Below, piece after piece: positions 30,783 through 55,237 of a stretch of 64,000 nt of DNA (within the stretch, counting starts at the first letter, position 1; each line of letters opens with the position of its first letter). The notes under the pieces were generated by a model, which was not told where the DNA came from, made no database searches, and saw only the letters and a list, made by a program, of their open reading frames with translations. Both the position numbers and the translations under genes were made by a program. Origin of the DNA: a phage; sequence record OZ346219.1; one strand, written 5' to 3'.

Positions 30783-30811
30783 ATTATGATATACACCATC
30801 TGTTATGTCAA
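30783..30811 (-). promoter_or_regulatory. sigma70-like early promoter cassette with stem-loop (PeSL-like)
   Basis: on - strand TTGACA-N17-CATAAT; 37 nt upstream of ORF start. Confidence 0.6.
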
Positions 30812-30817
30812 CAACTT

Positions 30818-30997
30818 TTAGAACATTTTTGAAATTAATTCTGCTTTGATTTCGCAGAGAACATCTAAAGATTTCTCGTCACCCGCTTTTGCTGCTTCTG
30901 CTTGCATTTTTGAAATGGCTTCAATGTCAGTGCAATTATAAGCCGCTTGAACTTTAGCGATTGCGATGATTGCCGATTCGATGGTTAAGTGTTTCAT
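30818..30997 (-). CDS. small hypothetical protein (59 aa)
   Basis: RBS ggaga in conserved leader; below track size cut-off. Confidence 0.4.
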   Translation of the reverse strand: MKHLTIESAIIAIAKVQAAYNCTDIEAISKMQAEAAKAGDEKSLDVLCEIKAELISKMF

Positions 30998-31029
30998 GTT
31001 TGATTCTCCTTTCGTTTCGGTATGTGTGC

Positions 31030-31059
31030 ATTATGGGGGATCACCGATCCCCCTGTCAA
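31030..31059 (-). promoter_or_regulatory. sigma70-like early promoter cassette with stem-loop (PeSL-like)
   Basis: TTGACA-N18-CATAAT on - strand; stem-loop gggggatcaccgatccccc. Confidence 0.6.
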
Positions 31060-31066
31060 CAATTTT

Positions 31067-31585
31067 TTAGTTATTTTTTAATTGCTCATCTTGCAATAGG
31101 GCAATCACATGCTGGCGATGTTCTTCCGATTGAGGCACACCGAAAAAGTTTGTTTTGTAGAAATACTCTAATCGGTCTTCTCGTGTGCTCTCTTCCATCA
31201 TGATCGCGGGTAGTCCGAGATTTCGGAAACGTCGCTTTTCTGCTGGCGTAAAATCACTGTAATACAACATAGAATCATCATTACCAGCAATGCTAAACTC
31301 ATCCTTCATAAAGGAGAATATTGCGTTTAAACGCTGTTTACCGTCCACGATTTCGATCTCATAGCGAGAGCCATCATCAATCTTAGCCATTGCGATAGCA
31401 CCAACCGGAAAATCATTAATAAGGTTTTCGATAAACATACGTTTGTTTTCGGTGTCCCATACTAAAGGACGCTGATAATCTGGGTTCATGCTGATATAGC
31501 CATCTTCTAACCATGCATCATAAACAGAGATGACAAAGTTTTTAGTATTGGTATAGTAACGGCGTTTAGGCGTTAAACGGTTCAT
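31067..31585 (-). CDS. DUF262 / ParB-like domain protein (stand-alone)
   Basis: start at MNRLTPKRR (RBS aggaga); motifs DYQRPLVW and IVDGKQRLNAI typical of DUF262/ParB N-terminal domain. Confidence 0.6.
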   Translation of the reverse strand: MNRLTPKRRYYTNTKNFVISVYDAWLEDGYISMNPDYQRPLVWDTENKRMFIENLINDFPVGAIAMAKIDDGSRYEIEIVDGKQRLNAIFSFMKDEFSIAGNDDSMLYYSDFTPAEKRRFRNLGLPAIMMEESTREDRLEYFYKTNFFGVPQSEEHRQHVIALLQDEQLKNN

Positions 31586-31586
31586 G

Positions 31587-31919
31587 TTATAGTCTCCTGA
31601 ATGGATCATCACGTAAATCAATATCTTTTAAGAACTCATCCCATGAATGCCGGATATTGTTCTTAATTCTCCAGATAAGCGCAGGGATTGAACGCTCTCC
31701 CATCTGGAAGTAGGGATCATATGATCCGTATGCCCAATATGCTACTACAATTCCACAATCAGCGCAATAGTATTCTATTTCACTGGCTGGCGACCAAAGT
31801 CCATCAATATGATCGGTGATCTTGCTTTCGATGTTATGGCTATGACAATCAGGGCAACGGATGCAATGACCTTGTTTATCGTAATTTGACGTTAGCGAAT
31901 ACTTAAACAATCTCATCAT
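31587..31919 (-). CDS. zinc-finger protein (CxxC...CxxC)
   Basis: 110 aa; CIRCPDCHSH ... CADCG. Confidence 0.5.
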   Translation of the reverse strand: MMRLFKYSLTSNYDKQGHCIRCPDCHSHNIESKITDHIDGLWSPASEIEYYCADCGIVVAYWAYGSYDPYFQMGERSIPALIWRIKNNIRHSWDEFLKDIDLRDDPFRRL

Positions 31920-32632
31920 AGATCCTTATTTGCTTCAAATACTGCCTTTGCGAATCCTCGCGGGGTAAGTGACCTGATAGTCTTTGTTTTCGTTCCTTTC
32001 CCGCCTAGCTTAGAATGCTGTTTACTGTACCCTTTATTAATCTGCAACGGTTTCTTTTCTGGCATTATAAAGCCTTGTCCGGTCCATAAGCAAGTCTTTT
32101 TCGGGTACATATCACGGGCGGCGATATACTCAGGAAAAGTAGGATGTTTATCATCTTCCGGCAAATAACCGCCATATTCCCACGGGTGGAACATGTAATC
32201 AGGCTTACGCCACATGCTAGAGATAACGCTTACAGGATTCTCTATCATGTAGGGAACTCCTAGCCATTCACCCAAATAAGCGGTTATTTTAGCTGCCCTT
32301 ACATCATGAACTTGAATCAATGGTCCTTGTTCTCGTTTCTTTCGTTCAAAGTGTGCAGCGCCACTAACAGCTAAATTGGTGCACGGTGGGAATGCAAAGA
32401 TAATATCCGGTTTCCCCCATTCAAGGTCCATTGCTCTTTCCAGCCAGTTCAAATCAATCCAGGTGTTTACATAGGTAATGTTTGGATGTTCAAATCTGGT
32501 ATTATACTTTTTGTATGTGCCGTGGTCGCCATCATCAGCATTAAAGCAGATCACCTTATGACCTGCTTTAGCCCATTCTAGCCCCATTATCCCCGATCCG
32601 TCAAAGTTACAGAATATTAATTTTTGTTTCAT
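31916..32632 (-). CDS. C5-methyltransferase-like protein (putative)
   Basis: 238 aa; FCNFDGSG (motif I-like), FAFPPCTNLAVSGA (PC motif IV-like), YMIENPV (ENV motif VI-like). Confidence 0.5.
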   Translation of the reverse strand: MKQKLIFCNFDGSGIMGLEWAKAGHKVICFNADDGDHGTYKKYNTRFEHPNITYVNTWIDLNWLERAMDLEWGKPDIIFAFPPCTNLAVSGAAHFERKKREQGPLIQVHDVRAAKITAYLGEWLGVPYMIENPVSVISSMWRKPDYMFHPWEYGGYLPEDDKHPTFPEYIAARDMYPKKTCLWTGQGFIMPEKKPLQINKGYSKQHSKLGGKGTKTKTIRSLTPRGFAKAVFEANKDL

Positions 32633-32874
32633 ATACGCCCCTTTAATCCAACACAGATTTTAGAAGGTTCTTTGCCGTGCCACATTAAGTAAAGTCCGTT
32701 AATGCGGCCTTGTTTTGTATATGATTCTTTTCTGATCTTCTTATAGTGTCGTGTTTCCTCAACTGATTGTTTAGAATACCAATCATAAAGGAAGAGGCAC
32801 AAAGGCCAACCATTAGCGGCCTTTGTGCAGTTATTAAGAAATTCCTTATTGCGTTTAATTAATTTTCTTTTCAC
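32629..32874 (-). CDS. hypothetical protein (81 aa)
   Basis: ATGA overlaps with neighbours. Confidence 0.5.
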   Translation of the reverse strand: MKRKLIKRNKEFLNNCTKAANGWPLCLFLYDWYSKQSVEETRHYKKIRKESYTKQGRINGLYLMWHGKEPSKICVGLKGRI

Positions 32875-33122
32875 GCTGCCCCCATTGGTTTGATAGTAAC
32901 AGAATCTAAAAGACCTTTGTTAGCCAGTTCGCGGCAAGTTTTCAGATCCGCAACTTCCCAGCCAGCCGCAATCAGGTTATCAATGAGGCTGTTAGCAACT
33001 TCTTCGCTCATGAAAGAGCACTGTTTGCCGATGGTGTAGCGTACACGCTGTAATTTCAGTTTACGGAAGCCTTTAACGTTCAGGTCTTTAGCGATTTTCT
33101 TTGCGGTTTCGATGTTAGCCAT
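32871..33122 (-). CDS. hypothetical protein (83 aa)
   Basis: conserved leader with RBS ggaga. Confidence 0.55.
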   Translation of the reverse strand: MANIETAKKIAKDLNVKGFRKLKLQRVRYTIGKQCSFMSEEVANSLIDNLIAAGWEVADLKTCRELANKGLLDSVTIKPMGAA

Positions 33123-33152
33123 TGTTTGATTCTCCTAAGTGGTATCTCGTCT

Positions 33153-33181
33153 TGATGGTTGTATTGTAGGGGAGTTATCCT
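33153..33181 (-). promoter_or_regulatory. sigma70-like early promoter cassette with stem-loop (PeSL-like)
   Basis: TTGACA-N17-TACAAT; stem-loop ggggagttatcctcccc. Confidence 0.6.
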
Positions 33182-33205
33182 CCCCTGTCAACACTTTTTA
33201 TAAAA

Positions 33206-33373
33206 TTATTTGTTAATTTCCGGTGCGTTGCTCGGATAGTAACCTTCTTTAACACCCAGATATTTTGCAACCATCCCTACAATCTTCTGTGCTACTACAA
33301 TGTCAAATTTCAGATAATCTTCGCCGTGGGTTTCAATGATATATGCTTCACATGCTGCTTTAGTCTCGAACAT
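33206..33373 (-). CDS. small protein (55 aa), copy A of duplicated gene
   Basis: MFETKAACEAYIIETHGEDYLKFDIVVAQKIVGMVAKYLGVKEGYYPSNAPEINK; paralog at 36492-36659. Confidence 0.5.
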   Translation of the reverse strand: MFETKAACEAYIIETHGEDYLKFDIVVAQKIVGMVAKYLGVKEGYYPSNAPEINK

Positions 33374-33407
33374 TTTGATTCTCCTATTTCGTTTCGTTAT
33401 GTGTGTA

Positions 33408-33436
33408 TTATAGGGGATCTCCCGATCCCCGTCAAC
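33408..33436 (-). promoter_or_regulatory. sigma70-like early promoter cassette with stem-loop (PeSL-like)
   Basis: TTGACG-N17-TATAAT; stem-loop ggggatctcccgatcccc. Confidence 0.6.
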
Positions 33437-33449
33437 AACTTTTTTAAAA

Positions 33450-33731
33450 TTATTCGTGATTAGTTTCGATGTTGTGCATTTTGCACCAGTTCAGCCAATC
33501 GCCCAGATCTTGATAGTTGATGCTTTTATCTGCTGCCATCGTTTTTGTCTTGATACCCATATGTGCGTTATGAGTAAGCATTTTTACAGTGAACTCGATT
33601 TTATCGCCTTTAGCTTTAACATCAACCAGTTTTGTCCACTGGCTACCAGCACCGCGAATGTTCATACCAACGATGTTTCCGATGTATGCTTCTTTGTTTT
33701 TCAGGATTTCGGTTGCTTTGATGAATTTCAT
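33450..33731 (-). CDS. hypothetical protein (93 aa)
   Basis: ORF with leader/RBS. Confidence 0.55.
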   Translation of the reverse strand: MKFIKATEILKNKEAYIGNIVGMNIRGAGSQWTKLVDVKAKGDKIEFTVKMLTHNAHMGIKTKTMAADKSINYQDLGDWLNWCKMHNIETNHE

Positions 33732-33763
33732 TTTTGATTCTCCAGTTCGTTTCGGTATGGGTG

Positions 33764-33792
33764 TATTATGCTATGTTCTTACTTTGGTGTCA
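33764..33792 (-). promoter_or_regulatory. sigma70-like early promoter cassette (PeSL-like)
   Basis: TTGACA-N17-CATAAT. Confidence 0.6.
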
Positions 33793-33802
33793 ACAACTTT
33801 TT

Positions 33803-34072
33803 TTAGATATTTTCAGAAATAAATTTTAAAACTTGACGTAAATGTTTCTCATCTTTGATAGTCGCCGGAAGTTCTTCTTTTACTTCCTGTGCAAGATAGA
33901 TATTTCCGTTCCAAGTGAAAGATCCGTCTTCGTTTACGCGATAGCTGAACATCCACTCGCAATCATTTTCGATTTCATATACACACAGAAGGGTGTAATC
34001 GTTAAAGCTATTGATTTCAAGGTCGAAGCCGTGACGTTTTGCAAAGTTGGTAGTGGTTTTAGTCAGCGCCAT
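33803..34072 (-). CDS. hypothetical protein (89 aa)
   Basis: ORF with RBS ggag. Confidence 0.55.
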   Translation of the reverse strand: MALTKTTTNFAKRHGFDLEINSFNDYTLLCVYEIENDCEWMFSYRVNEDGSFTWNGNIYLAQEVKEELPATIKDEKHLRQVLKFISENI

Positions 34073-34111
34073 TGTTTGATTCTCCTAAGTGGTATCTCGT
34101 TTCGATGGGTG

Positions 34112-34140
34112 TATTATGCTATAGGCGTGATCTGGTGTCA
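34112..34140 (-). promoter_or_regulatory. sigma70-like early promoter cassette (PeSL-like)
   Basis: TTGACA-N17-CATAAT. Confidence 0.6.
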
Positions 34141-34164
34141 ACAACTTTTTTAATTTTTTGGAAA

Positions 34165-34190
34165 TAAAAAAGCCGACACTAAGGTCGGCT
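34165..34190 (-). terminator. rho-independent terminator (leftward)
   Basis: A-run + agccgac actaag gtcggct. Confidence 0.55.
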
Positions 34191-34201
34191 AATAAAATCA
34201 T

Positions 34202-34507
34202 TTAGACAAAATAATCATTCAGTGCAATCCGGTCGGCGTATGCTGGTGTTACGTCAATCGCAATCACTTTAACGCGTGCTTTCTTGCGACCTGGGTTTTC
34301 TCGTAACCAGTGCTCATGACCGTGAACATTTTTATACTTTGATGCTTCTTCAAATGTACGGATCGGACCTGGATAATCTGCGTAAAGGATCTCTAGGTCT
34401 TCGGTGATGTAAAAATATACATCATAATTACTGTTCTCTAGTTTAAGCAGAGACTTTCGGAACATTGGGAGATTTTCGCGGGTAAATTCAAAGATATTAT
34501 CTTTCAT
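34202..34507 (-). CDS. small protein, HxHW paralog family member
   Basis: 101 aa; HGHEHWL...RVKVIAIDV. Confidence 0.55.
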   Translation of the reverse strand: MKDNIFEFTRENLPMFRKSLLKLENSNYDVYFYITEDLEILYADYPGPIRTFEEASKYKNVHGHEHWLRENPGRKKARVKVIAIDVTPAYADRIALNDYFV

Positions 34508-34531
34508 AGTATTATCCTCAATAGTTTGATG

Positions 34532-34555
34532 AAAAGGGGTGGGGCTTAACGCCCC
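34532..34555 (-). terminator. rho-independent terminator (leftward)
   Basis: A-run + ggggcttaacgcccc (same hairpin as at 30513). Confidence 0.5.
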
Positions 34556-34560
34556 GTATA

Positions 34561-34848
34561 TTAAAACAGTCCTTCCTGTACACCGTAGTAGAGTTCATCG
34601 CTGATAATTTCATTAATGCGACGGTGTGCATATTCCTGATTTGCGAAGTTATCAGCAAGTTCTACTTTAGTTTCTCCGTCATGAGTCCATTTAGTGATAA
34701 CTTTACCATCTGCAAATTTGAAGTTGAACTCTTTAGCTACTGCATCGCGTACCAGACGTGCGAACTTGTTATTACGGATTGCATTATCGGTTTCGTGTGC
34801 AGCGTGAGCGAATTTGTTAACTTTCAGAGTGATAGTAATGTATGCCAT
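34561..34848 (-). CDS. hypothetical protein (95 aa), AKEFN family
   Basis: RLVRDAVAKEFNFK; paralogous to 37855-38166. Confidence 0.55.
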   Translation of the reverse strand: MAYITITLKVNKFAHAAHETDNAIRNNKFARLVRDAVAKEFNFKFADGKVITKWTHDGETKVELADNFANQEYAHRRINEIISDELYYGVQEGLF

Positions 34849-34894
34849 AATTTGATTCTCCTAGTTAGAAAGTGTATCTCGTTTCGATGGGTGT

Positions 34895-34923
34895 ATTATG
34901 CTATACACCCGATCTTATGTCAA
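34895..34923 (-). promoter_or_regulatory. sigma70-like early promoter cassette (PeSL-like)
   Basis: TTGACA-N17-CATAAT. Confidence 0.6.
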
Positions 34924-34929
34924 CACTTT

Positions 34930-35208
34930 TTATAAAATAATTTTTTGATATTTTTCTATGATGTTTGTGTAGGTCACGTCAACCGCTAGCACCGTTGCTT
35001 CGAATCCACCGTTTAGCCAATGGCTATGATCATGATCGTGAAAGAAACCAAGACCAGTACGAAGACCTTCTTTATATTCGGCGCGTACATTTAGATCATC
35101 ATCGATAAACAGATAAAACCATGAATTTTTACTAGGATTGATGATACAACCTTTCAGATTAGGGAGAATATCACGACTAAGAATAAACTTATCACCTACT
35201 TTGAACAT
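34930..35208 (-). CDS. small protein, HxHW paralog family member
   Basis: HDHSHWL...ATVLAVDV; start set at MFKVGDKF with RBS (track ORF starts 35223). Confidence 0.5.
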   Translation of the reverse strand: MFKVGDKFILSRDILPNLKGCIINPSKNSWFYLFIDDDLNVRAEYKEGLRTGLGFFHDHDHSHWLNGGFEATVLAVDVTYTNIIEKYQKIIL

Positions 35209-35212
35209 AATA

Positions 35213-35533
35213 TTAGTCCTCATTTATAAGGTCAAACCAATTGTTTTTCGCATAATGCTTAATGCGTGCTTGATCTGCTTCCGCTGGTGATAGATTCCAT
35301 GCAACCACTACAACTTCTGACGCATCGTCATCCGTTTCTGATACCCAATGATTGTGATTCATACAGTTATTTGCGATCGAGTGAGCAAATGATTTCATCA
35401 CTGGAGACGTATAATCATAGTAACGGATTTTCAGATTTTCATCAACGTACAAATAGATCGTATAAGGTTTATATTCAGTAACCAGTAACAGACAGTTACG
35501 CAATTCTGGGAAAATCTTTTTAGTTAATTTCAT
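35213..35533 (-). CDS. small protein, HxHW paralog family member
   Basis: MNHNHWV...EVVVVAW; start set at MKLTKKIF with RBS gagg (track ORF starts 35614). Confidence 0.5.
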   Translation of the reverse strand: MKLTKKIFPELRNCLLLVTEYKPYTIYLYVDENLKIRYYDYTSPVMKSFAHSIANNCMNHNHWVSETDDDASEVVVVAWNLSPAEADQARIKHYAKNNWFDLINED

Positions 35534-35534
35534 T

Positions 35535-36235: not shown

Positions 36236-36247
36236 AATATATTCCTC

Positions 36248-36427: not shown

Positions 36428-36459
36428 TTTGATTCTCCGTTTGTTGTCTTGATGGGAGT

Positions 36460-36488
36460 ATCTTACTACTCCCTTTAATCATTGTCAA
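36460..36488 (-). promoter_or_regulatory. sigma70-like early promoter cassette with stem-loop (PeSL-like)
   Basis: TTGACA-N17-TAAGAT; stem-loop gggagtatcttactactccc. Confidence 0.55.
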
Positions 36489-36491
36489 CTA

Positions 36492-36659
36492 TTATTTGTT
36501 AATTTCCGGTGCGTTGCTCGGATAGTAACCTTCTTTAACACCCAGATATTTTGCAACCATTCCGGTGATCTTCTGTGCTACTACGATATCGAATTTCAGG
36601 TAGTCTTCACCGTGGTTTGCTACAATGTATGCTTCGCATTCTGCTTTAGTCTGGAACAT
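36492..36659 (-). CDS. small protein (55 aa), copy B of duplicated gene
   Basis: MFQTKAECEAYIVANHGEDYLKFDIVVAQKITGMVAKYLGVKEGYYPSNAPEINK. Confidence 0.5.
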   Translation of the reverse strand: MFQTKAECEAYIVANHGEDYLKFDIVVAQKITGMVAKYLGVKEGYYPSNAPEINK

Positions 36660-36691
36660 TTTTGATTCTCCTATCTCGTTGGTATGTGTGC

Positions 36692-36720
36692 ATTATAGGG
36701 GATCACCGATCCCCTGTCAA
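36692..36720 (-). promoter_or_regulatory. sigma70-like early promoter cassette with stem-loop (PeSL-like)
   Basis: TTGACA-N17-TATAAT; stem-loop ggggatcaccgatcccc. Confidence 0.6.
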
Positions 36721-36725
36721 CAACT

Positions 36726-37019
36726 TTATAATGCTTTATATGCGTATTTCATAAATTTGTCTGCCACTTCATTGGCATGTTCAGATTCTACGCCTGATTC
36801 TAGAACAATAGCTAGGTCGGTTTCGTCATTCCCGCCGTACCAATGATTTGATGTTCGATTTTTTTCAATTGGAAATTGGTCACTTTTATCTGTGCGACAA
36901 AATACATCTAAATGCTCGTCGATGTAAAAGATCCAATCTTCATAAAGAATAACGGTATTAGCCAGATTTTTATTGCCTTCAACGAAAGGTTCGGCTACAA
37001 ACAAATTAGTATGTTCCAT
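36726..37019 (-). CDS. small protein, HxHW paralog family member
   Basis: SNHWYGG...LAIVLESGV; start set at MEHTNLF with RBS gagga (track ORF starts 37076). Confidence 0.45.
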   Translation of the reverse strand: MEHTNLFVAEPFVEGNKNLANTVILYEDWIFYIDEHLDVFCRTDKSDQFPIEKNRTSNHWYGGNDETDLAIVLESGVESEHANEVADKFMKYAYKAL

Positions 37020-37227: not shown

Positions 37228-37283
37228 AATATTATCCTCAATTTGTGGGAGAGTATTACCCTCCCGATTATTGTTATACTACA

Positions 37284-37586
37284 TTACGCAAAATGGCGTG
37301 TCAATGCTTCTTTTGCTGTTCCGCTAAGATTCTCGATCTCTCCTGGCATAACCTCAACCGCAAGAACTTCTACAACATCCTCTGATCCTAACCAGTGAGT
37401 ATGACCTTTGTAGAACTTGATATCCCATTTATCGCTATCGCTAGCCCACCACACATCACCGTCGATAAAGTTGATGTAAAGCACACTACGACACATTGAA
37501 TTAATTACTTTCAATACTGCGCCTTTCATCTCTTCCACGGTATGGTCTTCCATTTTGAAGACCTCGCCTACCTTAACTTTTGCCAT
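37284..37586 (-). CDS. small protein, HxHW paralog family member
   Basis: GHTHWLGSEDVVEVLAVEV. Confidence 0.55.
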   Translation of the reverse strand: MAKVKVGEVFKMEDHTVEEMKGAVLKVINSMCRSVLYINFIDGDVWWASDSDKWDIKFYKGHTHWLGSEDVVEVLAVEVMPGEIENLSGTAKEALTRHFA

Positions 37587-37603: not shown

Positions 37604-37786
37604 TTACATAACAATCACGCCAGCCGTTGAAAGTTGATGTTTCAACTGAGCATTTTCTGCTACCGTCAAATCAATGATTTCTTGTGACGCTGCAATCATA
37701 TAGCCATTGGTGATATTGTTTTGCATCAGTTCAATGGTTTCTTCGTTGTAGCGGATTTTAGCGATGATTTCGTTGAAGTTCATAAT
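37604..37786 (-). CDS. small hypothetical protein (60 aa)
   Basis: start set at MNFNEIIAK after leader RBS ggaga (track ORF starts 37849). Confidence 0.4.
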   Translation of the reverse strand: MMNFNEIIAKIRYNEETIELMQNNITNGYMIAASQEIIDLTVAENAQLKHQLSTAGVIVM

Positions 37787-37817
37787 TGATTCTCCTAGTT
37801 CGTTTCGGTATGTGTGT

Positions 37818-37846
37818 AGTATAGGGGATCGGTGATCCCCTGTCAA
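37818..37846 (-). promoter_or_regulatory. sigma70-like early promoter cassette with stem-loop (PeSL-like)
   Basis: TTGACA-N17-TATACT; stem-loop ggggatcggtgatcccc. Confidence 0.6.
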
Positions 37847-37854
37847 CAACTTTT

Positions 37855-38166
37855 TTAAAGTTTTTCCATGATAACGGTCATAATTACATCTTCTGCGCGA
37901 GCGGTCAGATTATCAGCGTCAGCATGTGGGCGGTTGGTTGTTACAGAGATAACACCGTTGCGCACTGGTTTGATGTTGATATCAAGATGATCCGCGAAAC
38001 GTTCGCCAGTTACAGAATGAATTTTGGTGTTAAATTCTTTTGCCAGTGCCTTGCGAACTTCACGAATCAGGGTAGCGTTTTTCAGTTGGTTCTCCGCGCT
38101 CATGGTCTTCTTGGTGTTCATGGTTCCGTCGAAGTCAATCATTGGCAGCGTTACGATGTATTTCAT
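37855..38166 (-). CDS. hypothetical protein (103 aa), AKEFN family
   Basis: REVRKALAKEFNTK; start set at MKYIVTLP after leader RBS. Confidence 0.5.
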   Translation of the reverse strand: MKYIVTLPMIDFDGTMNTKKTMSAENQLKNATLIREVRKALAKEFNTKIHSVTGERFADHLDINIKPVRNGVISVTTNRPHADADNLTARAEDVIMTVIMEKL

Positions 38167-38211
38167 TTTTGATTCTCCGTTTAAGAAAGTGTGTTTCGTT
38201 TTGATGTGTGT

Positions 38212-38240
38212 AGTATAGGGGATCACCGATCCCCTGTCAA
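38212..38240 (-). promoter_or_regulatory. sigma70-like early promoter cassette with stem-loop (PeSL-like)
   Basis: TTGACA-N17-TATACT; stem-loop ggggatcaccgatcccc. Confidence 0.6.
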
Positions 38241-38252
38241 CAACTTTTTGAA

Positions 38253-38729
38253 TTATTTTTCTTGATGCTCGCGATCGTACTTTTCGAAATAAAATTCTAC
38301 TGGCTGGTCATGAATTGACAGTAAGCCAAAGCGTTTAGCCGCTCGCAATCCCATATTGCGCTGAATGTACTTCTGGAAGTTCTCGCGTATACACTTACGC
38401 CAGTATTCTAAGCCCATACAGCTTTTATAAAGATTGCATTGCACACACGCCGGATTCATGTTATCAAGTATATCATGTTCCGGTTTATGCATTCCTACAA
38501 CCTTATACTTCCACGATCCATCATCATTACGGGCAATTCGTCCATTTTCATCATAGACTACCTTTGAGCGTCGCAATACTGGTTTGATGTGGTCTGCGTG
38601 CCAGCGATCCCCTAGTTCCTCGCCACAATAGGCACAACGTCCACCATATTTCATTTTCAGGATCTGGCGTTGCTCTTTCTTTGACATTTTTTTAGGTTTA
38701 GGGGCTTTCGCCCCTTCATTATCACACAT
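38253..38729 (-). CDS. HNH endonuclease
   Basis: 158 aa; CAYCG...HADHIKP...CVQCN HNH motif. Confidence 0.65.
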   Translation of the reverse strand: MCDNEGAKAPKPKKMSKKEQRQILKMKYGGRCAYCGEELGDRWHADHIKPVLRRSKVVYDENGRIARNDDGSWKYKVVGMHKPEHDILDNMNPACVQCNLYKSCMGLEYWRKCIRENFQKYIQRNMGLRAAKRFGLLSIHDQPVEFYFEKYDREHQEK

Positions 38730-46033: not shown

Positions 46034-46066
46034 CTTGATACTCCTTAGTTGTTTTGGTATGGGAGT

Positions 46067-46095
46067 ATCTTACTACTCCCGTGATATGCTGTCAA
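46067..46095 (-). promoter_or_regulatory. sigma70-like early promoter cassette with stem-loop (PeSL-like)
   Basis: TTGACA-N17-TAAGAT; gggagtatcttactactccc. Confidence 0.55.
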
Positions 46096-46104
46096 CTGCT
46101 TTTT

Positions 46105-46254
46105 TTATGCAACCGCAAACATCAACATTTGAACATTCTTGGCTGTCTGGCTTTCAAAGTTCTGACATTCTTTGATAATGTCCTCTACTTTCTCGCCGGA
46201 GATCTCCGCGTAAGTTTCGATTGCCATTTTCAGTACCGCGTCAAAGTTGTTCAT
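46105..46254 (-). CDS. small hypothetical protein (49 aa)
   Basis: leader RBS ggaga; below track cut-off. Confidence 0.35.
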   Translation of the reverse strand: MNNFDAVLKMAIETYAEISGEKVEDIIKECQNFESQTAKNVQMLMFAVA

Positions 46255-46292
46255 TTGATTCTCCTTAAAGTGTATTTCGTTTCGATGGGGGT

Positions 46293-46321
46293 ATATTACT
46301 ACCCCCGTTTCATGCTGTCAA
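46293..46321 (-). promoter_or_regulatory. sigma70-like early promoter cassette with stem-loop (PeSL-like)
   Basis: TTGACA-N17-TAATAT; gggggtatattactaccccc. Confidence 0.55.
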
Positions 46322-46540
46322 CTACTTTTTAATGACAAGTTCGAATTTTGCTACCTTGCGTCCTCGTTTATTGAAAGCAACCCACGGACGGTTTTCAATG
46401 TAGAACAATTCTTCGCCAATAATGAATACTGGCTGATTGTAAAGGCGACCCATCAGGTCACGCTGGCGAATGGTAGTAGATTCGTATACTTCGCCTACTA
46501 CAAAGTGTTTGCTGATAGAGTCGGTGCAAGTAAATTTCAT
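46322..46540 (-). CDS. hypothetical protein (72 aa)
   Basis: ORF with leader. Confidence 0.45.
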   Translation of the reverse strand: MKFTCTDSISKHFVVGEVYESTTIRQRDLMGRLYNQPVFIIGEELFYIENRPWVAFNKRGRKVAKFELVIKK

Positions 46541-46572
46541 TTTGATTCTCCTTTGTTTCGTTTCGATGGGAG

Positions 46573-46601
46573 TATCTTACTACCCCCGTTATTCAGTGTC
46601 A
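46573..46601 (-). promoter_or_regulatory. sigma70-like early promoter cassette with stem-loop (PeSL-like)
   Basis: TTGACA-N17-TAAGAT. Confidence 0.55.
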
Positions 46602-46609
46602 ACTACTTT

Positions 46610-46828
46610 TTACTTGTTGTATTCATTCCACCACTGGGTGAGCTTATCAATTATTTTTGTGTTTCTATCCAACTTCTCCCACCGTTTTCTAGGGTTTATC
46701 AACCGGAATAGGTAAGGTGTACTTGTTAAGTGAACTCGGTCAATGTAGTGATTGATATACTGCTTTTCAATTCTAAGTTTCATCTTTTTACGATGAAAAT
46801 ATGCAATGACTTGTTCTTCTGTTTCCAT
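46610..46828 (-). CDS. hypothetical protein (72 aa)
   Basis: ORF with leader. Confidence 0.45.
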   Translation of the reverse strand: METEEQVIAYFHRKKMKLRIEKQYINHYIDRVHLTSTPYLFRLINPRKRWEKLDRNTKIIDKLTQWWNEYNK

Positions 46829-46852
46829 ATGTTCCTCCGTTTCGATGTGCGT

Positions 46853-46881
46853 ATTATGCTATGGCAAGATCAGATTGTCAA
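46853..46881 (-). promoter_or_regulatory. sigma70-like early promoter cassette (PeSL-like)
   Basis: TTGACA-N17-CATAAT. Confidence 0.55.
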
Positions 46882-46891
46882 CACCCAATAA

Positions 46892-46917
46892 CAAAAAAGT
46901 CGCCACTATGGGCGACT
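46892..46917 (-). terminator. rho-independent terminator (leftward)
   Basis: A-run + agtcgcc actatg ggcgact. Confidence 0.55.
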
Positions 46918-46928
46918 TTGAACAAACA

Positions 46929-49085: not shown

Positions 49086-49117
49086 AATAAAATCCTCACT
49101 TGTTTTTTGATGGTTGT

Positions 49118-49146
49118 ATTATAGCGGGGATTTCTCCCCGCGTCAA
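49118..49146 (-). promoter_or_regulatory. sigma70-like early promoter cassette with stem-loop (PeSL-like)
   Basis: TTGACG-N17-TATAAT; gcggggatttctccccgc. Confidence 0.55.
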
Positions 49147-49154
49147 CACTTATT

Positions 49155-51398
49155 TTACAGCTTGCAAGATGAGCACTCGCTAGCGTCTTCCGTACCATCT
49201 GCACCATCACGCACGTTAGCGTAATACAGTGTCTTGAGGCCGTAATATTGAGCAAACAACATATCATCTAAAACATCAGCAATATCGACTTTACCAGTCT
49301 TATAAGTGCTTGGATCGTAGGATGTGTTGGAACTAATCGCCTGATCTACAAACTTCTGCATGATCGCTGCCAGTGTCAGATAAGGCTTGTTACCTTTCTT
49401 GATCAGTGTCCAAAGCAGGTCAATAACATCAGCATTATTCTCTACGTTCGGAATGACCTGATTAAATTGCCCTTCTTTCGATCCTTTAACCGATACAATC
49501 CCGCGAGGCGGTTCAATACCGTTTGTGCTGTTAGATACCTGAGAAGACGACTCACACGGCATCAGCGCCGAAAGTGTACTGTTACGAATGCCATATTTTT
49601 TCAGGTCTTCGCGCAGTTCTTCCCAATCCATCTCATACACCGGATCAACCAGTTCATCTACTGTCTTTTTGTACCAGTCGATAGGCAGTTCACCGCGACC
49701 ATAGCGTGTTTCGTGCATCAGTTCGCAAGCACCCTTCTCTTTAGCCAGTCGCACACTAGCCTTAATCAGAGCATATTGCAAGCGTTCAAACGTTTTATGC
49801 GTAAACTCGTTAGCGTCTTCATATGTGAAGAAATTATCTGCTAGATATGATGCAAAGTTAGTAACACCAACACCCAGAGAGCGACGTTTTTTGGCTGTCA
49901 GAGCTTGTTCTACAGGATAATCCTGATAATCTAACAGGTTGTCAAGTGCACGCACCATAACCATAGCAATGCGTTCTACTTCTTCCATATTTTCGATATC
50001 GAAATTACCTAAAACATATGCTGCCAAAGTACATAGGCTAATTTCTGAATCATCACGACCCATCGGTTTAGTAGGCAGTGCAATTTCACAACACAGGTTA
50101 GATTGTTTAATCGGTGCTACATTACGAATAAACGCCCCGTGATTGTTCATGTTGTCTGTGAACGTTGGGTAGATTCGACCAGTGTTAAAACGTTCAATTG
50201 CCACCGCTAAAAACAGGTCTTCGGCTTTAACACGAGTTTTACGAACACTCGGATCTTTTTCCAGTTTTTCGTAAAGTTGGCGGAAACCTTCCTCATCTCG
50301 GAAGTATAGATCCCACAACAAGCCACCCGCAACATCTGGACTAAACAGAGTAATGTAATCCCGTTTAAGGAATCGCTCTACCATCAGGTTATTAATCTGT
50401 ACGCCGTAGTCAAGATGGCGAATGCGGTTATCTTCCACGCCCTTATTGTTCTTTAACACAATCAGACTTTCAAACTCTAAATGCCACATTGGGTAATAGA
50501 GTGTCGCTGCCCCGCCACGAATACCGCCTTGTGAGCATGACTTAACGGCAGTCTGAAAATGTTTCCAGAATGGGATAACGCCAGTATGACGAACTTCACC
50601 ATGCCCGATCTTAGATCCTTCCGCGCGAATCATGCCAGCGTTGATACCGATACCAGCACGCTTGCTAATATACTTAATGATTGCATTTGCGGTTTCATTA
50701 ATACCCTGCAATGAGTCATCACTTTCGATCACCACACACGAACTAAATTGGCGTGTTGGGGTACGCACACCTGCCATAATCGGAGTAGGCAGAGAGATTT
50801 GCTTATTCGCAACCGCATTATAAAAATCAATCACATGTTCAAGTCGATTTTCGGTCTCTTCTTGATGCAAGCACATACCGATCAGCATATACGCAAATTG
50901 CGGTGTTTCGATGATTTTCTTAGTGCTGCGATCCTGAACAAGATATTTCTCTTTTAACTGCATCGCACCAGCATAGGTCATTTTAAAATCAAGTTTATGG
51001 TCGATGAATTTCTCCAGATATTCCACTTCTTCACGGGAATACTTTTGCAGAATTTCGCGATCATATTTTCCGGTTGCAATATTACGCTCAATATGGCTGT
51101 AAAAATCAATCGGTTGGAATTGACCGTATACTGATTTGCGAAGCGCGAACATTGCAAGGTTACTTGCTACATATTGATAATCGGGTGTTTCTACAGTAAT
51201 GTTATCTGCTGCGACCTTAATCAATACTTTCTGGATATCGTTGGTAGACATACCTTCTGTCAGAAGTGGTTCAACCATATCAAACAATTCATATGGATCA
51301 ACGTTATGACCTTCGGCTGCCGCTTCCAGAATTTTCATTACTTTTTCTTTTTCAAAAGGAACAGTCAGACCGGAAGACTTAACAACATTTTTAATCAT
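49155..51398 (-). CDS. nrdA: ribonucleotide reductase large subunit NrdA
   Basis: 747 aa; N-terminal ATP-cone, class I RNR core, C-terminal CSSC. Confidence 0.92.
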   Translation of the reverse strand: MIKNVVKSSGLTVPFEKEKVMKILEAAAEGHNVDPYELFDMVEPLLTEGMSTNDIQKVLIKVAADNITVETPDYQYVASNLAMFALRKSVYGQFQPIDFYSHIERNIATGKYDREILQKYSREEVEYLEKFIDHKLDFKMTYAGAMQLKEKYLVQDRSTKKIIETPQFAYMLIGMCLHQEETENRLEHVIDFYNAVANKQISLPTPIMAGVRTPTRQFSSCVVIESDDSLQGINETANAIIKYISKRAGIGINAGMIRAEGSKIGHGEVRHTGVIPFWKHFQTAVKSCSQGGIRGGAATLYYPMWHLEFESLIVLKNNKGVEDNRIRHLDYGVQINNLMVERFLKRDYITLFSPDVAGGLLWDLYFRDEEGFRQLYEKLEKDPSVRKTRVKAEDLFLAVAIERFNTGRIYPTFTDNMNNHGAFIRNVAPIKQSNLCCEIALPTKPMGRDDSEISLCTLAAYVLGNFDIENMEEVERIAMVMVRALDNLLDYQDYPVEQALTAKKRRSLGVGVTNFASYLADNFFTYEDANEFTHKTFERLQYALIKASVRLAKEKGACELMHETRYGRGELPIDWYKKTVDELVDPVYEMDWEELREDLKKYGIRNSTLSALMPCESSSQVSNSTNGIEPPRGIVSVKGSKEGQFNQVIPNVENNADVIDLLWTLIKKGNKPYLTLAAIMQKFVDQAISSNTSYDPSTYKTGKVDIADVLDDMLFAQYYGLKTLYYANVRDGADGTEDASECSSCKL

Positions 51399-53032: not shown

Positions 53033-53033
53033 G

Positions 53034-53603
53034 TTACGCCTTCTTACGTTCTAAAATTTGTTCGCTGATCAGGTAATTATCAAGGAAGTGATTATGTTCT
53101 TCTTTGGTTACAAAGTCAAAATATAATTCCTGAATCATTTCCTTAGAGATACCAACATCATATTCAAATGGATCGTTGACCCCTGAACGTTGAACATACG
53201 TTAACACAATACGGTCCGCAAAGTCAACCGCTTTTTCAATCAGGGAAGGTCCGCCGATAACACTTACCAAACCTTGCGTTTTCTCCAGGACTTTTAACAG
53301 ATCCTTTAATTCAATTCCAGTATACACATTAGGCTGGTCGCCGTTTTTGGCTTTCGGTGTCGGCTTGCTGGCATCGGTACTAATAACCACATTAAGACGA
53401 CCTTCCAGTGCTTTAGGCAGACTTTCAAAGGTATTACGTCCCATTACAACAGCCGCAAGTTCAACATCTCCCATAGTGCGCATTTTAAAGTTTTCCATGT
53501 CCTTTTTGATTGGACGCCCCCACGGTAAACCGCCTTTAAAACCAAAAGCCCAATTTTCATCTGACATTTTAGTGTCACCAATCGCAAATACACATTGAAT
53601 CAT
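53034..53603 (-). CDS. frd: dihydrofolate reductase
   Basis: 189 aa; AFG..GGLPWGR, VIGGPSL as in T4 Frd/DHFR. Confidence 0.88.
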   Translation of the reverse strand: MIQCVFAIGDTKMSDENWAFGFKGGLPWGRPIKKDMENFKMRTMGDVELAAVVMGRNTFESLPKALEGRLNVVISTDASKPTPKAKNGDQPNVYTGIELKDLLKVLEKTQGLVSVIGGPSLIEKAVDFADRIVLTYVQRSGVNDPFEYDVGISKEMIQELYFDFVTKEEHNHFLDNYLISEQILERKKA

Positions 53604-53618
53604 AATATAAATCTCCCA

Positions 53619-53948
53619 TCAAATCAGTTTGAAATAGTTTTCGTTTACATTTTCTTCTGTGATTGCTGTCTTAAATTCTTGACCGTTATCCGGTGTGATG
53701 AAATAACGGTCAGAATAATCACGAAAACGTTTTAAGTGAGATACCCCAACATTAACACCATTTTCCCAGAAACGAAAGGTAATCATTTTTGGTTCATATC
53801 GATAATCGCTGGTTAACACAGTACCATCCCCGCGACGGGCTTCATAAACCGTAATACATTCACGATTAGCGGCTTTAAGGCATTCTTCAATAGTGCCGCA
53901 CGAGATAATACTTACTTTTTCATCTACGATTTGTTCTACAGTCCACAT
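53619..53948 (-). CDS. hypothetical protein (109 aa)
   Basis: start set at MWTVEQ after promoter cassette (track ORF starts 53981). Confidence 0.5.
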   Translation of the reverse strand: MWTVEQIVDEKVSIISCGTIEECLKAANRECITVYEARRGDGTVLTSDYRYEPKMITFRFWENGVNVGVSHLKRFRDYSDRYFITPDNGQEFKTAITEENVNENYFKLI

Positions 53949-53979
53949 AATATAATACTCTCTTTGTTTCGATATGTGC

Positions 53980-54007
53980 ATTATACACTATTGCGTTACG
54001 CTGTCAA
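53980..54007 (-). promoter_or_regulatory. sigma70-like early promoter cassette (PeSL-like)
   Basis: TTGACA-N16-TATAAT. Confidence 0.5.
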
Positions 54008-55180
54008 CTCTTTTTCAAAAGATTTTACAATATACATGATAGTGCTCAATTCAGACGGCGCTACTGTCTCTGTGTAGCCGTCCGGCATATCTTCTTTTGA
54101 GATATAGGAAGTTTTACCTTTCATAGCTTCCTTGATCTTGTTCTCTAATTCTAAGATCTTTTGACCATCTTGTAAAGTCAATTCATAAAAGATCTCGTGG
54201 TCGAACTGAGATTTACTGCTTTGTTGTTTTAGTCTTTTGGTGGTATTAGAATTTGTGACCCCAAATTTTACCCCGATTAATAAATGCTCTTTTATTAATT
54301 TTTGAATATACAGAGTTCCTTTTTTTAATGGATTGTACCCATATTTTGCACATTTAGGACATCGAGTTCCGTTCTGAAAATCAGTTATTCTAGGACTAAA
54401 TCCATGTCCATGATCACATAACAACTTTAATCTTGTATTCACACCTTTCCATTCATCTACAAAACCATTACATGTTATATTTTCTTCAACGAAAATTGGT
54501 TTAAGTCTTTCAAGATATTCTTCTTTTGAACGAGCATAGTTTTTTGCACACTTAAAACAACGTCTTCCCGCTTGAAAACTAGATATAATTGGATTAAATT
54601 CATGACCATACTCACACAATAAATTCATTTTTGTTTTGTTGCCGTTCCATTCACCAATAAATCCGTTAAAAATTATGTTCTCTTTTATGAAAATTGGTTT
54701 AAATCTTTCAAGATATTCTTCTTTTGATAAAGCATAATTATGTGCGCATTTAGGACATCGAGTCCCTCTCCGAAAATTTGTTATTGTCGGTGCAAATTCG
54801 TGTCCTTCACAACACACTAAATCTAACTTTGTGAATACACCTTTCCATTCATCTACAAAACCATTACATGTTATATTTTCTTCAACGAAAATTGGTTTAA
54901 GTCTTTCAAGATATTCTTCTTTTGATAAGGAATAATTATGTGCGCATCTAGGGCAACGTTTACCTTTTTGAAAATCTGATATTCTTGGTGTAAATTCATG
55001 TCCTTCACAACACACCAAACCCAATTTTGTTACGTTGCCTTTCCACTCACCAACAAATCCATTAAATACGATATTTTCTTTTTCGAAAATTGGTTTAAGT
55101 CTTTCGTAATATTCCGTAGGACTAATCGAGTTGTATTTTTTCTTAACCCATTCAATCTCATGAGCTTGACGTACTAACAT
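53996..55180 (-). CDS. four-repeat zinc-finger protein with T5orf172/GIY-YIG-like C-terminal domain
   Basis: 394 aa; 4 x ~66-aa repeats (SKEEYLERLKPIF.EENI.CNGFVDEWKG..TKL.L.C..GHEF.P.I..F..G.RCPKCA.NY); C-terminal GTLYIQKL...IGVKFGVTN...TKRLKQ. Confidence 0.6.
   Translation of the reverse strand: MLVRQAHEIEWVKKKYNSISPTEYYERLKPIFEKENIVFNGFVGEWKGNVTKLGLVCCEGHEFTPRISDFQKGKRCPRCAHNYSLSKEEYLERLKPIFVEENITCNGFVDEWKGVFTKLDLVCCEGHEFAPTITNFRRGTRCPKCAHNYALSKEEYLERFKPIFIKENIIFNGFIGEWNGNKTKMNLLCEYGHEFNPIISSFQAGRRCFKCAKNYARSKEEYLERLKPIFVEENITCNGFVDEWKGVNTRLKLLCDHGHGFSPRITDFQNGTRCPKCAKYGYNPLKKGTLYIQKLIKEHLLIGVKFGVTNSNTTKRLKQQSSKSQFDHEIFYELTLQDGQKILELENKIKEAMKGKTSYISKEDMPDGYTETVAPSELSTIMYIVKSFEKELTA
54325..55126 (-). 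repeat. four tandem ~200-bp coding repeats
   Basis: recurring gaaaattggtttaagtctttcaagatattcttcttttga near 54490, 54700, 54890, 55085. Confidence 0.7.
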
Positions 55181-55209
55181 ATTTTATCCTCCGTTGTTTC
55201 GATGTGTGC

Positions 55210-55237
55210 ATTATACATTACAGCATCAGCATGTCAA
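55210..55237 (-). promoter_or_regulatory. sigma70-like early promoter cassette (PeSL-like)
   Basis: TTGACA-N16-TATAAT. Confidence 0.5.

Follow-up and report, generated by a model that had tools for sequence, protein, structure and literature searches.

Promoter/stem-loop cassettes in a hyperplastic region of a Krischvirus-type phage as probable early promoters and sites of gene gain and loss

The 64,000-nt stretch of phage DNA analyzed here (sequence record OZ346219.1, hereafter the window) carries, between positions 30783 and 55237, 18 related minus-strand cassettes in which a σ70-type promoter, generally accompanied by a hairpin, precedes an open reading frame (ORF). Our analyses indicate, with a probability of about 0.9, that these repeats are promoter-early-stem-loop elements (PeSLs), that is, early promoters with a hairpin in front of small genes that also act as sites of gene gain and loss. 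The same interpretation had been offered in an earlier note made from the sequence alone, and it was borne out: the phage group and the locus are those for which PeSLs were described, and the promoter, the AT-rich upstream region, the hairpin position, the Shine-Dalgarno (SD) sequence followed by ATG and the intergenic location in a hyperplastic region were all found. Since PeSLs have been published for this phage group and locus, the element itself is already known.

The phage and the locus were identified by comparison with sequenced genomes. A megablast search of GenBank phages showed that Krischvirus genomes (kvi, JEP8, Phi1, GEC-3S, JSE and RB49-type assemblies) match positions 30000-50000 over their full length at 96-98% identity. 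In the Phi1 annotation the interval corresponds to the stretch from alt to gene 32 (ORF185-ORF240), where all genes are on the minus strand and mostly encode small hypothetical proteins, with known genes (DNA ligase, pseT, rnlA, nrdAB, td and frd) interspersed among them. The alt-gene 32 interval is one hyperplastic region of the RB49/Phi1 genome type.

About 100 PeSLs have been described in phi1 and RB49 (52 and 51 copies; Arbiol et al. 2010, Genome Biol Evol 2:140, PMC2839356). Each consists of a consensus σ70 promoter with an AT-rich upstream region and a stem-loop, often of the polyG...polyC type, followed by an SD and a start codon. The stem-loop takes one of five positions, most commonly between the hexamers or over the -10, and the elements lie mostly in hyperplastic regions ahead of ORFans. 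PeSL206/205 gave strong lacZ expression (about 13,000 Miller units), and the stem-loop of PeSL211/210, which belongs to the spacer class, reduced lacZ expression about as much as rrnB T1 did. The conservation over roughly 100 bp was proposed to provide a preferred site of recombination, PeSL mini-circles were shown, and T4-type recombination was noted to be able to use short (<50-bp) patches of homology; no integrase or recombinase was found, and the authors left that question open (PMC2839356). The idea has since been extended to other T4-like phages (Comeau et al. 2014, PMC4122927). Here each cassette is named by the plus-strand coordinate of the 5' end of its minus-strand -35 hexamer (Table 1). 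Cassette 36720 occupies the position of PeSL206/205 and cassette 38240 that of PeSL211/210, these equivalents being based on the ORF numbering of Phi1 rather than on the authors' PeSL table.

All 18 sites were recovered by extraction, and a consensus scan ranked them among the best minus-strand matches. As described earlier, the -35 hexamer is TTGACA (16 sites) or TTGACG (2 sites) and the spacer measures 16-18 nt (17 nt in 15 sites, 16 nt in two and 18 nt in one); the -10 hexamers agreed with the list given, and the leader CGAAACGA, the SD GGAGAATCAAA and three stem-loops had been quoted correctly, the last as plus-strand readings. The distance from the -10 to the ATG is 24-46 nt, where 25-47 nt had been given. 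Thirteen of the 18 positions in the earlier note were exact; 33431, 33787, 34135 and 46596 were off by 1-2 nt and 33176 by 10 nt, the hexamer complement at the last being 33186-33191. The claim that the copies are near-identical did not hold: their pairwise identity averages 0.64 (0.51-0.87) over 75 nt, compared with 0.49 for random 75-mers, and 46881, 49146, 54007 and 55237 are the most diverged. The list of sites, although real throughout, was also incomplete, as it missed a promoter at 37304 with a hairpin downstream of the -10.

The number of promoters far exceeds what base composition would provide. All 18 sites score 10-12 of 12 against the σ70 hexamers, and 14 score at least 11. Matches of at least 11 of 12 to TTGACA-N16-18-TATAAT occur 30 times on the minus strand of the 64-kb window and once on its plus strand, whereas 100 dinucleotide-preserving shuffles gave means of 1.3-1.4 per strand with a maximum of 5. 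The excess is approximately 20-fold, and a chance origin of the promoters (30 minus-strand matches against about 1.4 per strand in shuffles) was rejected. A profile hidden Markov model (HMM) built from the 18 sites found no other strong cassette copy in the window, the next best match being 14429-14366 on the minus strand (E=0.006). Applied to eight genomes, namely the window and seven relatives (Phi1, OZ035808, which is labelled Krischvirus RB49, JSE, G37-3, MIZ4, phiS and SFHK24), the HMM yielded 131 cassettes, 14-18 per genome and every one on the gene strand.

In each case the cassette takes up almost all of the 65-130 nt that separate two leftward early genes. Read on the minus strand, the order is the stop codon of the upstream gene within an A/T-rich stretch (...AAAAAGTTG), the -35 and -10 hexamers, a G/C-rich hairpin that lies between the hexamers or straddles the -10 and ends at about -1, a C/A-rich leader (A(T/A/C)CGAAACGA), the SD GGAGAATCAAA and the ATG. 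The stop codons, TAA or TAG, are visible in the upstream flank, and the mean A/T content of the 20 nt before the -35 is 79%, compared with 59% for the window. The blocks common to the aligned cassettes are an A-rich stretch ending in (A)AAAGTTG, the -35, the -10, ACAC(A/C)CAT, (AC)CGAAACGA and the SD, followed by the ATG. A small leftward ORF had been reported after each cassette, which is the case for 17 of the 18 (49-132 aa, in PHROGs of unknown function); the remaining ORF, 53996-55180, encodes a 394-aa CapR/HNH endonuclease. Two pairs of the driven ORFs are paralogs. ORFs 33206-33373 and 36492-36659 share 89% amino-acid identity and their cassettes are 79% identical, while for ORFs 34561-34848 and 37855-38166 the values are 31% and 75%, so that in the second pair the cassette is conserved far better than the ORF. 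Both pairs fit the duplication or re-insertion of modules made up of a cassette and its ORF.

The PeSL interpretation is also supported by a comparison of gene content. Positions 28400-56270 of the window were aligned to the seven relatives and the BLAST hits were chained, which gave 16 distinct indel or replacement events. Seven of these run from cassette to cassette and leave either a hybrid cassette or an extra module flanked by cassettes (Table 1); the latter was seen at 34141 in OZ035808 and MIZ4, where the module has a cassette on both flanks. The BLAST alignments on either side of a joint share 40-91 bp of the relative's sequence, indicating that the relative carries a single cassette there. 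Three-way alignments showed these joint cassettes to be hybrids, with the 5' part from the upstream window cassette and the 3' part from the downstream one. The point of the switch differs between events and falls in the -35, the hairpin/-10, the leader or the SD. For the loss of ORF 46105-46254 it lies in the leader/SD in JSE and in the -35 in phiS, indicating that this ORF was lost at least twice independently. The joint in MIZ4 is more complex, and its spacer resembles a third cassette type. The most variable locus of the region is the endonuclease gene 53996-55180, which is partly replaced in Phi1, G37-3, MIZ4 and phiS.

These breakpoints coincide with cassettes at well above the expected frequency. 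Nine of the 16 events have an end that falls within a cassette, although cassettes make up 6.5% of the region (binomial P = 4e-5). Among the two-ended events that remove window DNA, six of nine have both ends in cassettes, and the excess persists when breakpoints are restricted to gene junctions, of which, by our count, 18 of about 57 carry a cassette (P = 6e-5). A comparison of cassettes and gene content across related phages had been proposed earlier as a check, and it placed breaks inside cassettes well above expectation. The opposite pattern, cassettes that are absent or different at orthologous positions with identical gene content, was not what we found: all eight genomes have cassettes at corresponding positions, and the joints of content changes lie within them.

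It could be argued that the cassettes are nothing more than standard early promoters with ribosome-binding sites, kept similar by selection on expression, with recombination incidental, or, at the opposite extreme, that they are the targets of a dedicated recombinase that binds the hairpin. We consider this unlikely. Every conserved block (a UP-like A tract, the -35, the -10, the leader and the SD) does have a plausible role in expression. The first version, however, differs from the PeSL interpretation in emphasis alone, as exchange between cassettes is observed either way. Conservation also extends into the spacer and the leader and reaches 87% between non-orthologous copies, and the ORF pair with 31% amino-acid identity behind cassettes that are 75% identical suggests homogenization, or a strong constraint beyond the hexamers. 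The version with a dedicated enzyme finds no support here. The crossover points are scattered over the cassette, a pattern consistent with general homologous recombination and at odds with a site-specific enzyme, and no integrase or recombinase was found in the original study (PMC2839356).

The hairpins were examined by folding 47 nt starting just before the -35, with a threshold of -7 kcal/mol. A stem-loop in or next to the spacer had been described for many sites; we found one inside the promoter in 13 of the 18 (-8 to -15 kcal/mol, z = -1.9 to -4.9). In seven, the spacer class, a G/C stem of 7-8 bp lies between the hexamers (for example, GGGGATC-NNN-GATCCCC, GGGGAGG...CTCCCC and GCGGGGA...TCCCCGC). 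In the other six, the straddling class, the loop and the 3' arm contain the -10 and the stem ends about 6 nt past it (for example, GGGTGTAT/ATACACCC, GGGAGTA/TACTCCC and GGGGGTA/TACCCCC). The promoter lacks a stable hairpin in five cassettes. In three of these (34141, 46881 and 55237) a classical terminator hairpin and its T run immediately precede the promoter, and 33793 and 54007, which have no hairpin at all, are degenerate members of the PeSL family.

Comparison across the eight genomes supports the stems. The 131 cassettes reduce to 89 distinct promoter cores, 66 of which fold at -7 kcal/mol or below, and within four tabulated helix registers, each represented by 7-20 distinct cores, base pairing of the stem is kept in 90-100% of the sequences. 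Compensatory changes were found in the straddling class (TA to GC and GC to AT, in either direction, at pairs 17-32 and 18-31) and in the spacer class (GC with CG, AT with GC, GC with TA and AT with CG). These double changes indicate that selection acts on the stem structure and not on a fixed sequence. As its position is upstream of the predicted transcription start, the hairpin would be absent from the transcript of its own cassette and would act only on read-through RNA or on DNA. A search of Rfam returned no family at gathering score anywhere in the window, so that leader and hairpin do not belong to a described RNA family.

Two further features of the hairpins were noted. Cassettes 33793 and 34141 keep the straddling 3' arm ATACACCC and have unrelated sequence at the position of the 5' arm; such half-hairpins would be the expected remnant of a past crossover inside the hairpin. 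In some orthologs (JSE, MIZ4) a partly restored stem, TGTGTAT/ATACAC, is found at these cassettes. In the GGGGATC/GATCCCC hairpins the stem is constant and the 3-nt loop varies: it is GGT or its reverse complement ACC (compare 36720 with 37846), and ATC, GCC and ACA also occur among the orthologs. The GGT/ACC pair looks like a loop inversion, as might arise by a palindrome flip or a template switch.

The proposed mechanism begins with unmodified host RNA polymerase, which would initiate as soon as infection begins, some 7 nt downstream of the -10, at an A (AUCGAAACGA.../AUACCGAAACGA...), as predicted from the sequence. In a second step the hairpin would attenuate or terminate read-through from upstream genes, so that each small gene is insulated; support for this step comes from the reporter of a single spacer-type stem-loop (PMC2839356). 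Third, homology of about 100 bp that recurs every 0.2-1.5 kb in one orientation would be a substrate for the homologous recombination of the phage. Exchange between two cassettes would delete the ORF or ORFs between them and leave one functional hybrid, and the reverse reaction would insert a module. The deletion from cassette to cassette is shown by the genome comparison. A circular intermediate has been published (PMC2839356); in our data, the deletion products alone were seen. As our addition to this scheme, in a fourth step the SD would be a target of RegB/S1, and the transcripts would be quickly inactivated after an early burst.

The last step is based on the resemblance of the cassette SD to RegB sites. 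In T4, early mRNAs are inactivated by the endoribonuclease RegB/S1, which cleaves GG|AG within the consensus GGAGRAYARAA, for the most part at SDs (Durand et al. 2006, PMC1702504; Uzan and Miller 2010, PMC3014915). Its target is an unpaired 11-nt stretch in early-gene leaders, GGA(G/U) and then an A-rich tail. The SD GGAGAATCAAA agrees with 10 of the 11 consensus positions and has C at position 8; in twelve cassettes the sequence is GGAGAATCAA(A/T), which has the same C and matches 9-10 of 11 positions, and the SD of 55237 (GGAGGATAAAA) matches at all 11. Examples on the minus strand are found at 30999-31009, 33374-33384, 36661-36671, 46541-46551 and 55182-55192. All 13 window matches to GGAGRAYMRAW are inside cassettes, where shuffles of the 64 kb predict 1.16 on both strands together. 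In the same region of Phi1, GGAGRAYNRA precedes 13 of the 18 cassette genes and none of the 35 others (Fisher P = 1e-8), which mostly have SDs of the GAGG type. Phi1 also encodes regB (phi1p094), a gene that is not present in the window, and the SD of the Phi1 gene itself, GGATAATAAAA, fits the consensus. For RB49, a review reports in vivo cleavage of the corresponding regB SD (Uzan and Miller 2010, PMC3014915). The PeSL paper (PMC2839356) makes no mention of RegB, Dam or GATC.

Compared with the T4-type sites, the cassette SD GGAGAAUCAAA is alike in lying in an unstructured intergenic leader of early genes with a 10/11 match; GGAGGAUAAAA of 55237 matches at 11/11, and the SD of the Phi1 regB gene is GGAUAAUAAAA. 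The cassette SD differs in the C at position 8, and RB49-type RegB has diverged; the cassette sites are candidates for cleavage. The resemblance suggests that cassette genes would undergo a burst of expression that RegB then ends. A bolder view, which we hold tentatively and at somewhat less than even odds, is that the cassette may be a three-part expression switch made up of a burst promoter with consensus hexamers, a hairpin selected for structure and outside its own transcript, and an SD that doubles as a RegB/S1 site, to which the GATC pairs of the spacer hairpins might add sensitivity to Dam. If so, every gene that acquires a cassette would be switched on first and then shut off by a phage RNase. 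The mobile unit would hold a complete temporal program, and the conservation of its 3' end, equal to that of the promoter, would thereby be accounted for.

Several observations weigh against the PeSL interpretation as set out above, and the first group concerns the hairpins. No T run follows any of the 13 hairpins located inside promoters (the first 8 nt past the stem contain 0-3 T), and they are thus not canonical intrinsic terminators; a terminator scan flagged just the three upstream hairpins, at 34190, 46919 and 55291. Activity on reporter plasmids has been reported for just three PeSLs (PeSL193/192 and PeSL206/205 as promoters, PeSL211/210 as terminator), and the terminator work covers a stem-loop of the spacer class, not of the class that straddles the -10 (PMC2839356). 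Insulation by the straddling hairpins, which have no U tract, is doubtful. The second group concerns the SD. T4 sites strongly prefer A at position 8, where the cassette SD has C, and the cassettes are related by descent, so that the enrichment of GGAG and of GATC does not come from independent sites. The third group concerns the events. Two insertions merely adjoin the 5' edge of one cassette, at 33435 (JSE) and 38240 (JSE, G37-3), and seven of the 16 events have no relation to cassettes, at least two of them being insertions of homing-endonuclease genes.

The first group raises the possibility that the hairpins are not terminators but stabilizers of RNA 3' ends or processing sites on read-through RNA, elements acting at the DNA level on promoter melting or escape or as protein or cruciform targets, or Dam-dependent modulators acting through GATC. 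In addition to the missing U tracts, the straddling class is C-rich and spans the -10 to about -1, and covariation fits RNA or single-stranded DNA structure without specifying termination. Within the 18 promoter intervals (-35 through -10; 504 nt in total), 13 GATC sites were counted against 2.9 expected, although in copies related by descent (for example, at 31039/31046, 33416/33424, 36701/36708, 37827/37834, 38221/38228, 34129, 34911 and 46868). The sites keep a fixed distance of about 9-13 nt from the -35 start, with two per GGGGATCnnnGATCCCC hairpin and one even in some hairpin-free cassettes, and a gene for a Dam methyltransferase is found in another part of the Phi1 genome. On the other hand, the stem-loop of PeSL211/210, at the position of 38240, did act about like rrnB T1 on lacZ, and the GATC excess stems from a few related repeat copies in a window where GATC is unremarkable (363 observed, 345 expected). 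The Dam idea was reduced to a side note on the GATC grounds just given, and we regard a role other than termination for the hairpins as improbable overall, about on a par with selection on expression alone.

The events away from cassettes point to a further source of variation. An insertion of 618-638 bp at approximately 41.29 kb encodes a NUMOD4 protein in G37-3, and one of 552-728 bp at approximately 48.56 kb, after nrdB in JSE, phiS and SFHK24, is an annotated homing endonuclease; the window lacks both inserts, and neither junction has a cassette. In the sequences of the relatives, the insertion loci are at 13214-13853 (L010) and 20586-21315 (L009). The other five events outside cassettes are at 32631|32858, 34966|35751, 37586, 48747|48817 and approximately 51.43 kb, the first being a deletion with an overlap of 16 bp. 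As the gene between 54007 and 55237 is an HNH endonuclease, homing may contribute there, and homing and cassette recombination may both act at 53996-55180. That homing endonucleases or illegitimate recombination account for the gene-content differences generally, with cassettes just lying at gene boundaries, is very unlikely despite the two insertions, the 16-bp deletion and the variable endonuclease gene, given the excess over the junction-restricted expectation, joints that are hybrid cassettes with 40-91 bp of common homology, and the two losses of ORF 46105-46254 through different crossover points.

The cassettes share genus, locus, architecture, conservation over about 100 bp and the link to gain and loss of ORFans with the PeSLs of RB49 and phi1, and differ from them in nothing essential. 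They also resemble the early promoters of T4 and the elements at the internal-protein loci of T-even phages (Repoila et al. 1994, via PMC2839356), which combine strong promoters for host polymerase with extended conservation and A-rich upstream sequence, precede small non-essential early genes and have been proposed as recombination linkers. The T-even elements are, however, analogs and not homologs, with a T4-type early promoter in place of a plain σ70 one and with weaker, AT-rich stem-loops (PMC2839356). Similarities to the "linker" of Botstein and Campbell, to integron attC sites with their gene cassettes and to the "morons" of lambdoid phages lie in the short conserved flanks of single-gene modules, which supply expression signals and allow gain and loss that spares the neighbors. 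The differences are that the cassettes have no known integrase and show no site-specific crossover point, that, unlike in morons, the regulatory sequences are themselves the recombination substrate, and that the modules all share the orientation of the genes around them.

The occurrence of the cassettes beyond these genomes was assessed by scanning IMG/VR for exact patterns of the two main hairpin/promoter variants. Matches were found in two contigs of Krischvirus size and in one 4.4-kb fragment, which is 89% identical to Krischvirus around gene 49/nrdC/dam. In these exact-pattern scans the main variants were not found beyond Krischvirus-like contigs. The remaining hit, on contig L025, which showed no match to phages, is an unrelated hairpin that lacks TTGACA; it was set aside as a chance hit to a degenerate pattern.

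Other promoters were noted on the same strand. The one at 37304 fits the published PeSL subclass with a stem-loop downstream of the -10 and falls outside the high-homology family. Several further near-consensus promoters lie within coding sequences. In 56300-60400, within the replication and recombination genes upstream of gene 32, there are a dozen σ70 matches of at least 10 of 12, all on the gene strand (minus), for example at 56423, 57690, 58239, 58372, 59278 and 59835; many have a TG-extended -10, and they are without cassette homology or hairpin. These may be internal early or delayed-early promoters. Two minus-strand promoters with 12/12 matches, at 14411 and 14982, belong to a small cluster of leftward genes amid rightward structural genes. 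A terminator hairpin with a T run precedes 14982, and 14411 is a weak match to the cassette HMM (E=0.006); both are probably PeSLs of other subclasses, located outside the interval. Within the interval, the gene at 31067-31585 (minus strand) specifies a protein of 172 aa, in which Pfam identifies a GmrSD_N (DUF262) domain (E=6e-20). This gene is two genes downstream of 31916-32632 (minus strand), whose Phi1 equivalent is annotated as a DNA methyltransferase and which had no Pfam match here. Both genes are part of the 2.5-kb block between 30811 and 33435 that is missing from MIZ4.

Table 1. Cassettes, one additional promoter and cassette-to-cassette events in the window. Positions of -35 5' ends (in brackets) are plus-strand coordinates and serve as cassette names; the two arms of a hairpin are separated by a slash.
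Feature	Position	Strand	-35, spacer, -10	Hairpin and other features	SD	ORF, or change in relatives
PeSL cassette	30747..30836	(-)	TTGACA (30811), 17 nt, CATAAT	Straddles -10: GGTGTAT/ATACACC	GGAGTATCAAA	30534-30746 (70 aa)
PeSL cassette	30998..31084	(-)	TTGACA (31059), 18 nt, CATAAT	Spacer: GGGGGATCGGTGATCCCCC	GGAGAATCAAA	30818-30997 (59 aa)
PeSL cassette	33123..33216	(-)	TTGACA (33191), 17 nt, TACAAT	Spacer: GGGGAGGATAACTCCCC		32871-33122 (83 aa)
PeSL cassette	33374..33460	(-)	TTGACG (33435), 17 nt, TATAAT	Spacer: GGGGATCGGGAGATCCCC		33206-33373 (55 aa, phrog_8009)
PeSL-family cassette	33732..33818	(-)	TTGACA (33793), 17 nt, CATAAT	No hairpin; 3' arm ATACACCC retained, 5' arm gone		33450-33731 (93 aa)
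PeSL cassette	34073..34190	(-)	TTGACA (34141), 17 nt, CATAAT	Upstream, terminator-type: AGCCGACCTTAGTGTCGGC + T run, 34190-34171; no promoter hairpin		33803-34072 (89 aa)
PeSL cassette	34849..34948	(-)	TTGACA (34923), 17 nt, CATAAT	Straddles -10: GGGTGTAT/ATACACCC		34561-34848 (95 aa, phrog_7474)
PeSL cassette	36428..36513	(-)	TTGACA (36488), 17 nt, TAAGAT	Straddles -10: GGGAGTA/TACTCCC		36248-36427 (59 aa)
PeSL cassette	36660..36745	(-)	TTGACA (36720), 17 nt, TATAAT (12/12)	Spacer: GGGGATCGGTGATCCCC		36492-36659 (55 aa, phrog_8009; Phi1 ORF205 equivalent)
PeSL cassette	37784..37871	(-)	TTGACA (37846), 17 nt, TATACT	Spacer: GGGGATCACCGATCCCC; loop is reverse complement of 36720 loop		37604-37783 (59 aa)
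PeSL cassette	38167..38265	(-)	TTGACA (38240), 17 nt, TATACT	Spacer: GGGGATCGGTGATCCCC		37855-38166 (103 aa, phrog_7474; Phi1 ORF210 equivalent)
PeSL cassette	46034..46120	(-)	TTGACA (46095), 17 nt, TAAGAT	Straddles -10: GGGAGTA/TACTCCC		45635-46033 (132 aa)
PeSL cassette	46255..46346	(-)	TTGACA (46321), 17 nt, TAATAT	Straddles -10: GGGGGTA/TACCCCC		46105-46254 (49 aa)
PeSL cassette	46541..46627	(-)	TTGACA (46602), 17 nt, TAAGAT	Straddles -10: GGGGGTA/TACTCCC (one G-U pair)		46322-46540 (72 aa)
PeSL cassette	46829..46919	(-)	TTGACA (46881), 17 nt, CATAAT	Upstream, terminator-type: AAAGTCGCCCATAGTGGCGACTTT + T run, 46919-46896; no promoter hairpin		46610-46828 (72 aa)
PeSL cassette, more diverged	49086..49171	(-)	TTGACG (49146), 17 nt, TATAAT	Spacer: GCGGGGAGAAATCCCCGC	GAGGA	48918-49085 (55 aa)
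PeSL-family cassette, diverged	53949..54032	(-)	TTGACA (54007), 16 nt, TATAAT (12/12)	No stable hairpin; stop codon of upstream endonuclease inside		53619-53948 (109 aa)
PeSL cassette, diverged	55181..55291	(-)	TTGACA (55237), 16 nt, TATAAT (12/12)	Upstream, terminator-type: AAAGCCTTCCTTCGGGGAGGCTTT + T run, 55291-55268	GGAGGATAAAA	53996-55180 (394 aa, CapR/HNH endonuclease)
Extra promoter	37228..37304	(-)	TTGACA, 17 nt, TAGTAT (10/12)	Downstream of -10: GGGAGGGTAATACTCTCCC		37036-37227 (63 aa)
Cassette-to-cassette event	30811 x 31059	(-)				ORF 30818-30997 (59 aa, unknown function) missing in OZ035808, G37-3, phiS; single hybrid 31059x30811 cassette
Cassette-to-cassette event	30811 x 33435					2.5 kb missing in MIZ4
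Cassette-to-cassette event	36720 x 38240					1.4 kb missing in phiS; includes ORF 37855-38166
Cassette-to-cassette event	37846 x 38240	(-)				ORF 37855-38166 (103 aa) missing in SFHK24; hybrid 38240x37846 cassette
Cassette-to-cassette event	46095 x 46321	(-)				ORF 46105-46254 (49 aa, unknown function) missing in JSE, phiS, SFHK24
Cassette-to-cassette event	54007 x 55237	(-)				Endonuclease gene 53996-55180 missing in JSE (hybrid 55237x54007); 314 bp instead in OZ035808, SFHK24

The window holds no new kind of element, and our results are an independent replication with genomes sequenced after 2010. Beyond the PeSL paper they add breakpoints in seven genomes, mostly post-2010, two losses of one ORF, compensatory changes in the stems, the failure of in-promoter hairpins to follow the canonical terminator rule, and the RegB/S1-like SD; the comparative replication and the SD are modest additions. 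The published model is qualified in that most of the hairpins are unlike canonical terminators, and the RegB-like SD, if true, would tie PeSL shuffling to the post-transcriptional shut-off of early genes. For the annotation and engineering of Krischvirus therapy phages, deletions and duplications are to be expected at the cassettes. PeSLs are among the few concrete mechanisms offered for the modular evolution of large lytic phages, in which short regulatory repeats allow single genes of unknown function to be lost, gained or moved while the neighboring transcription units stay intact.

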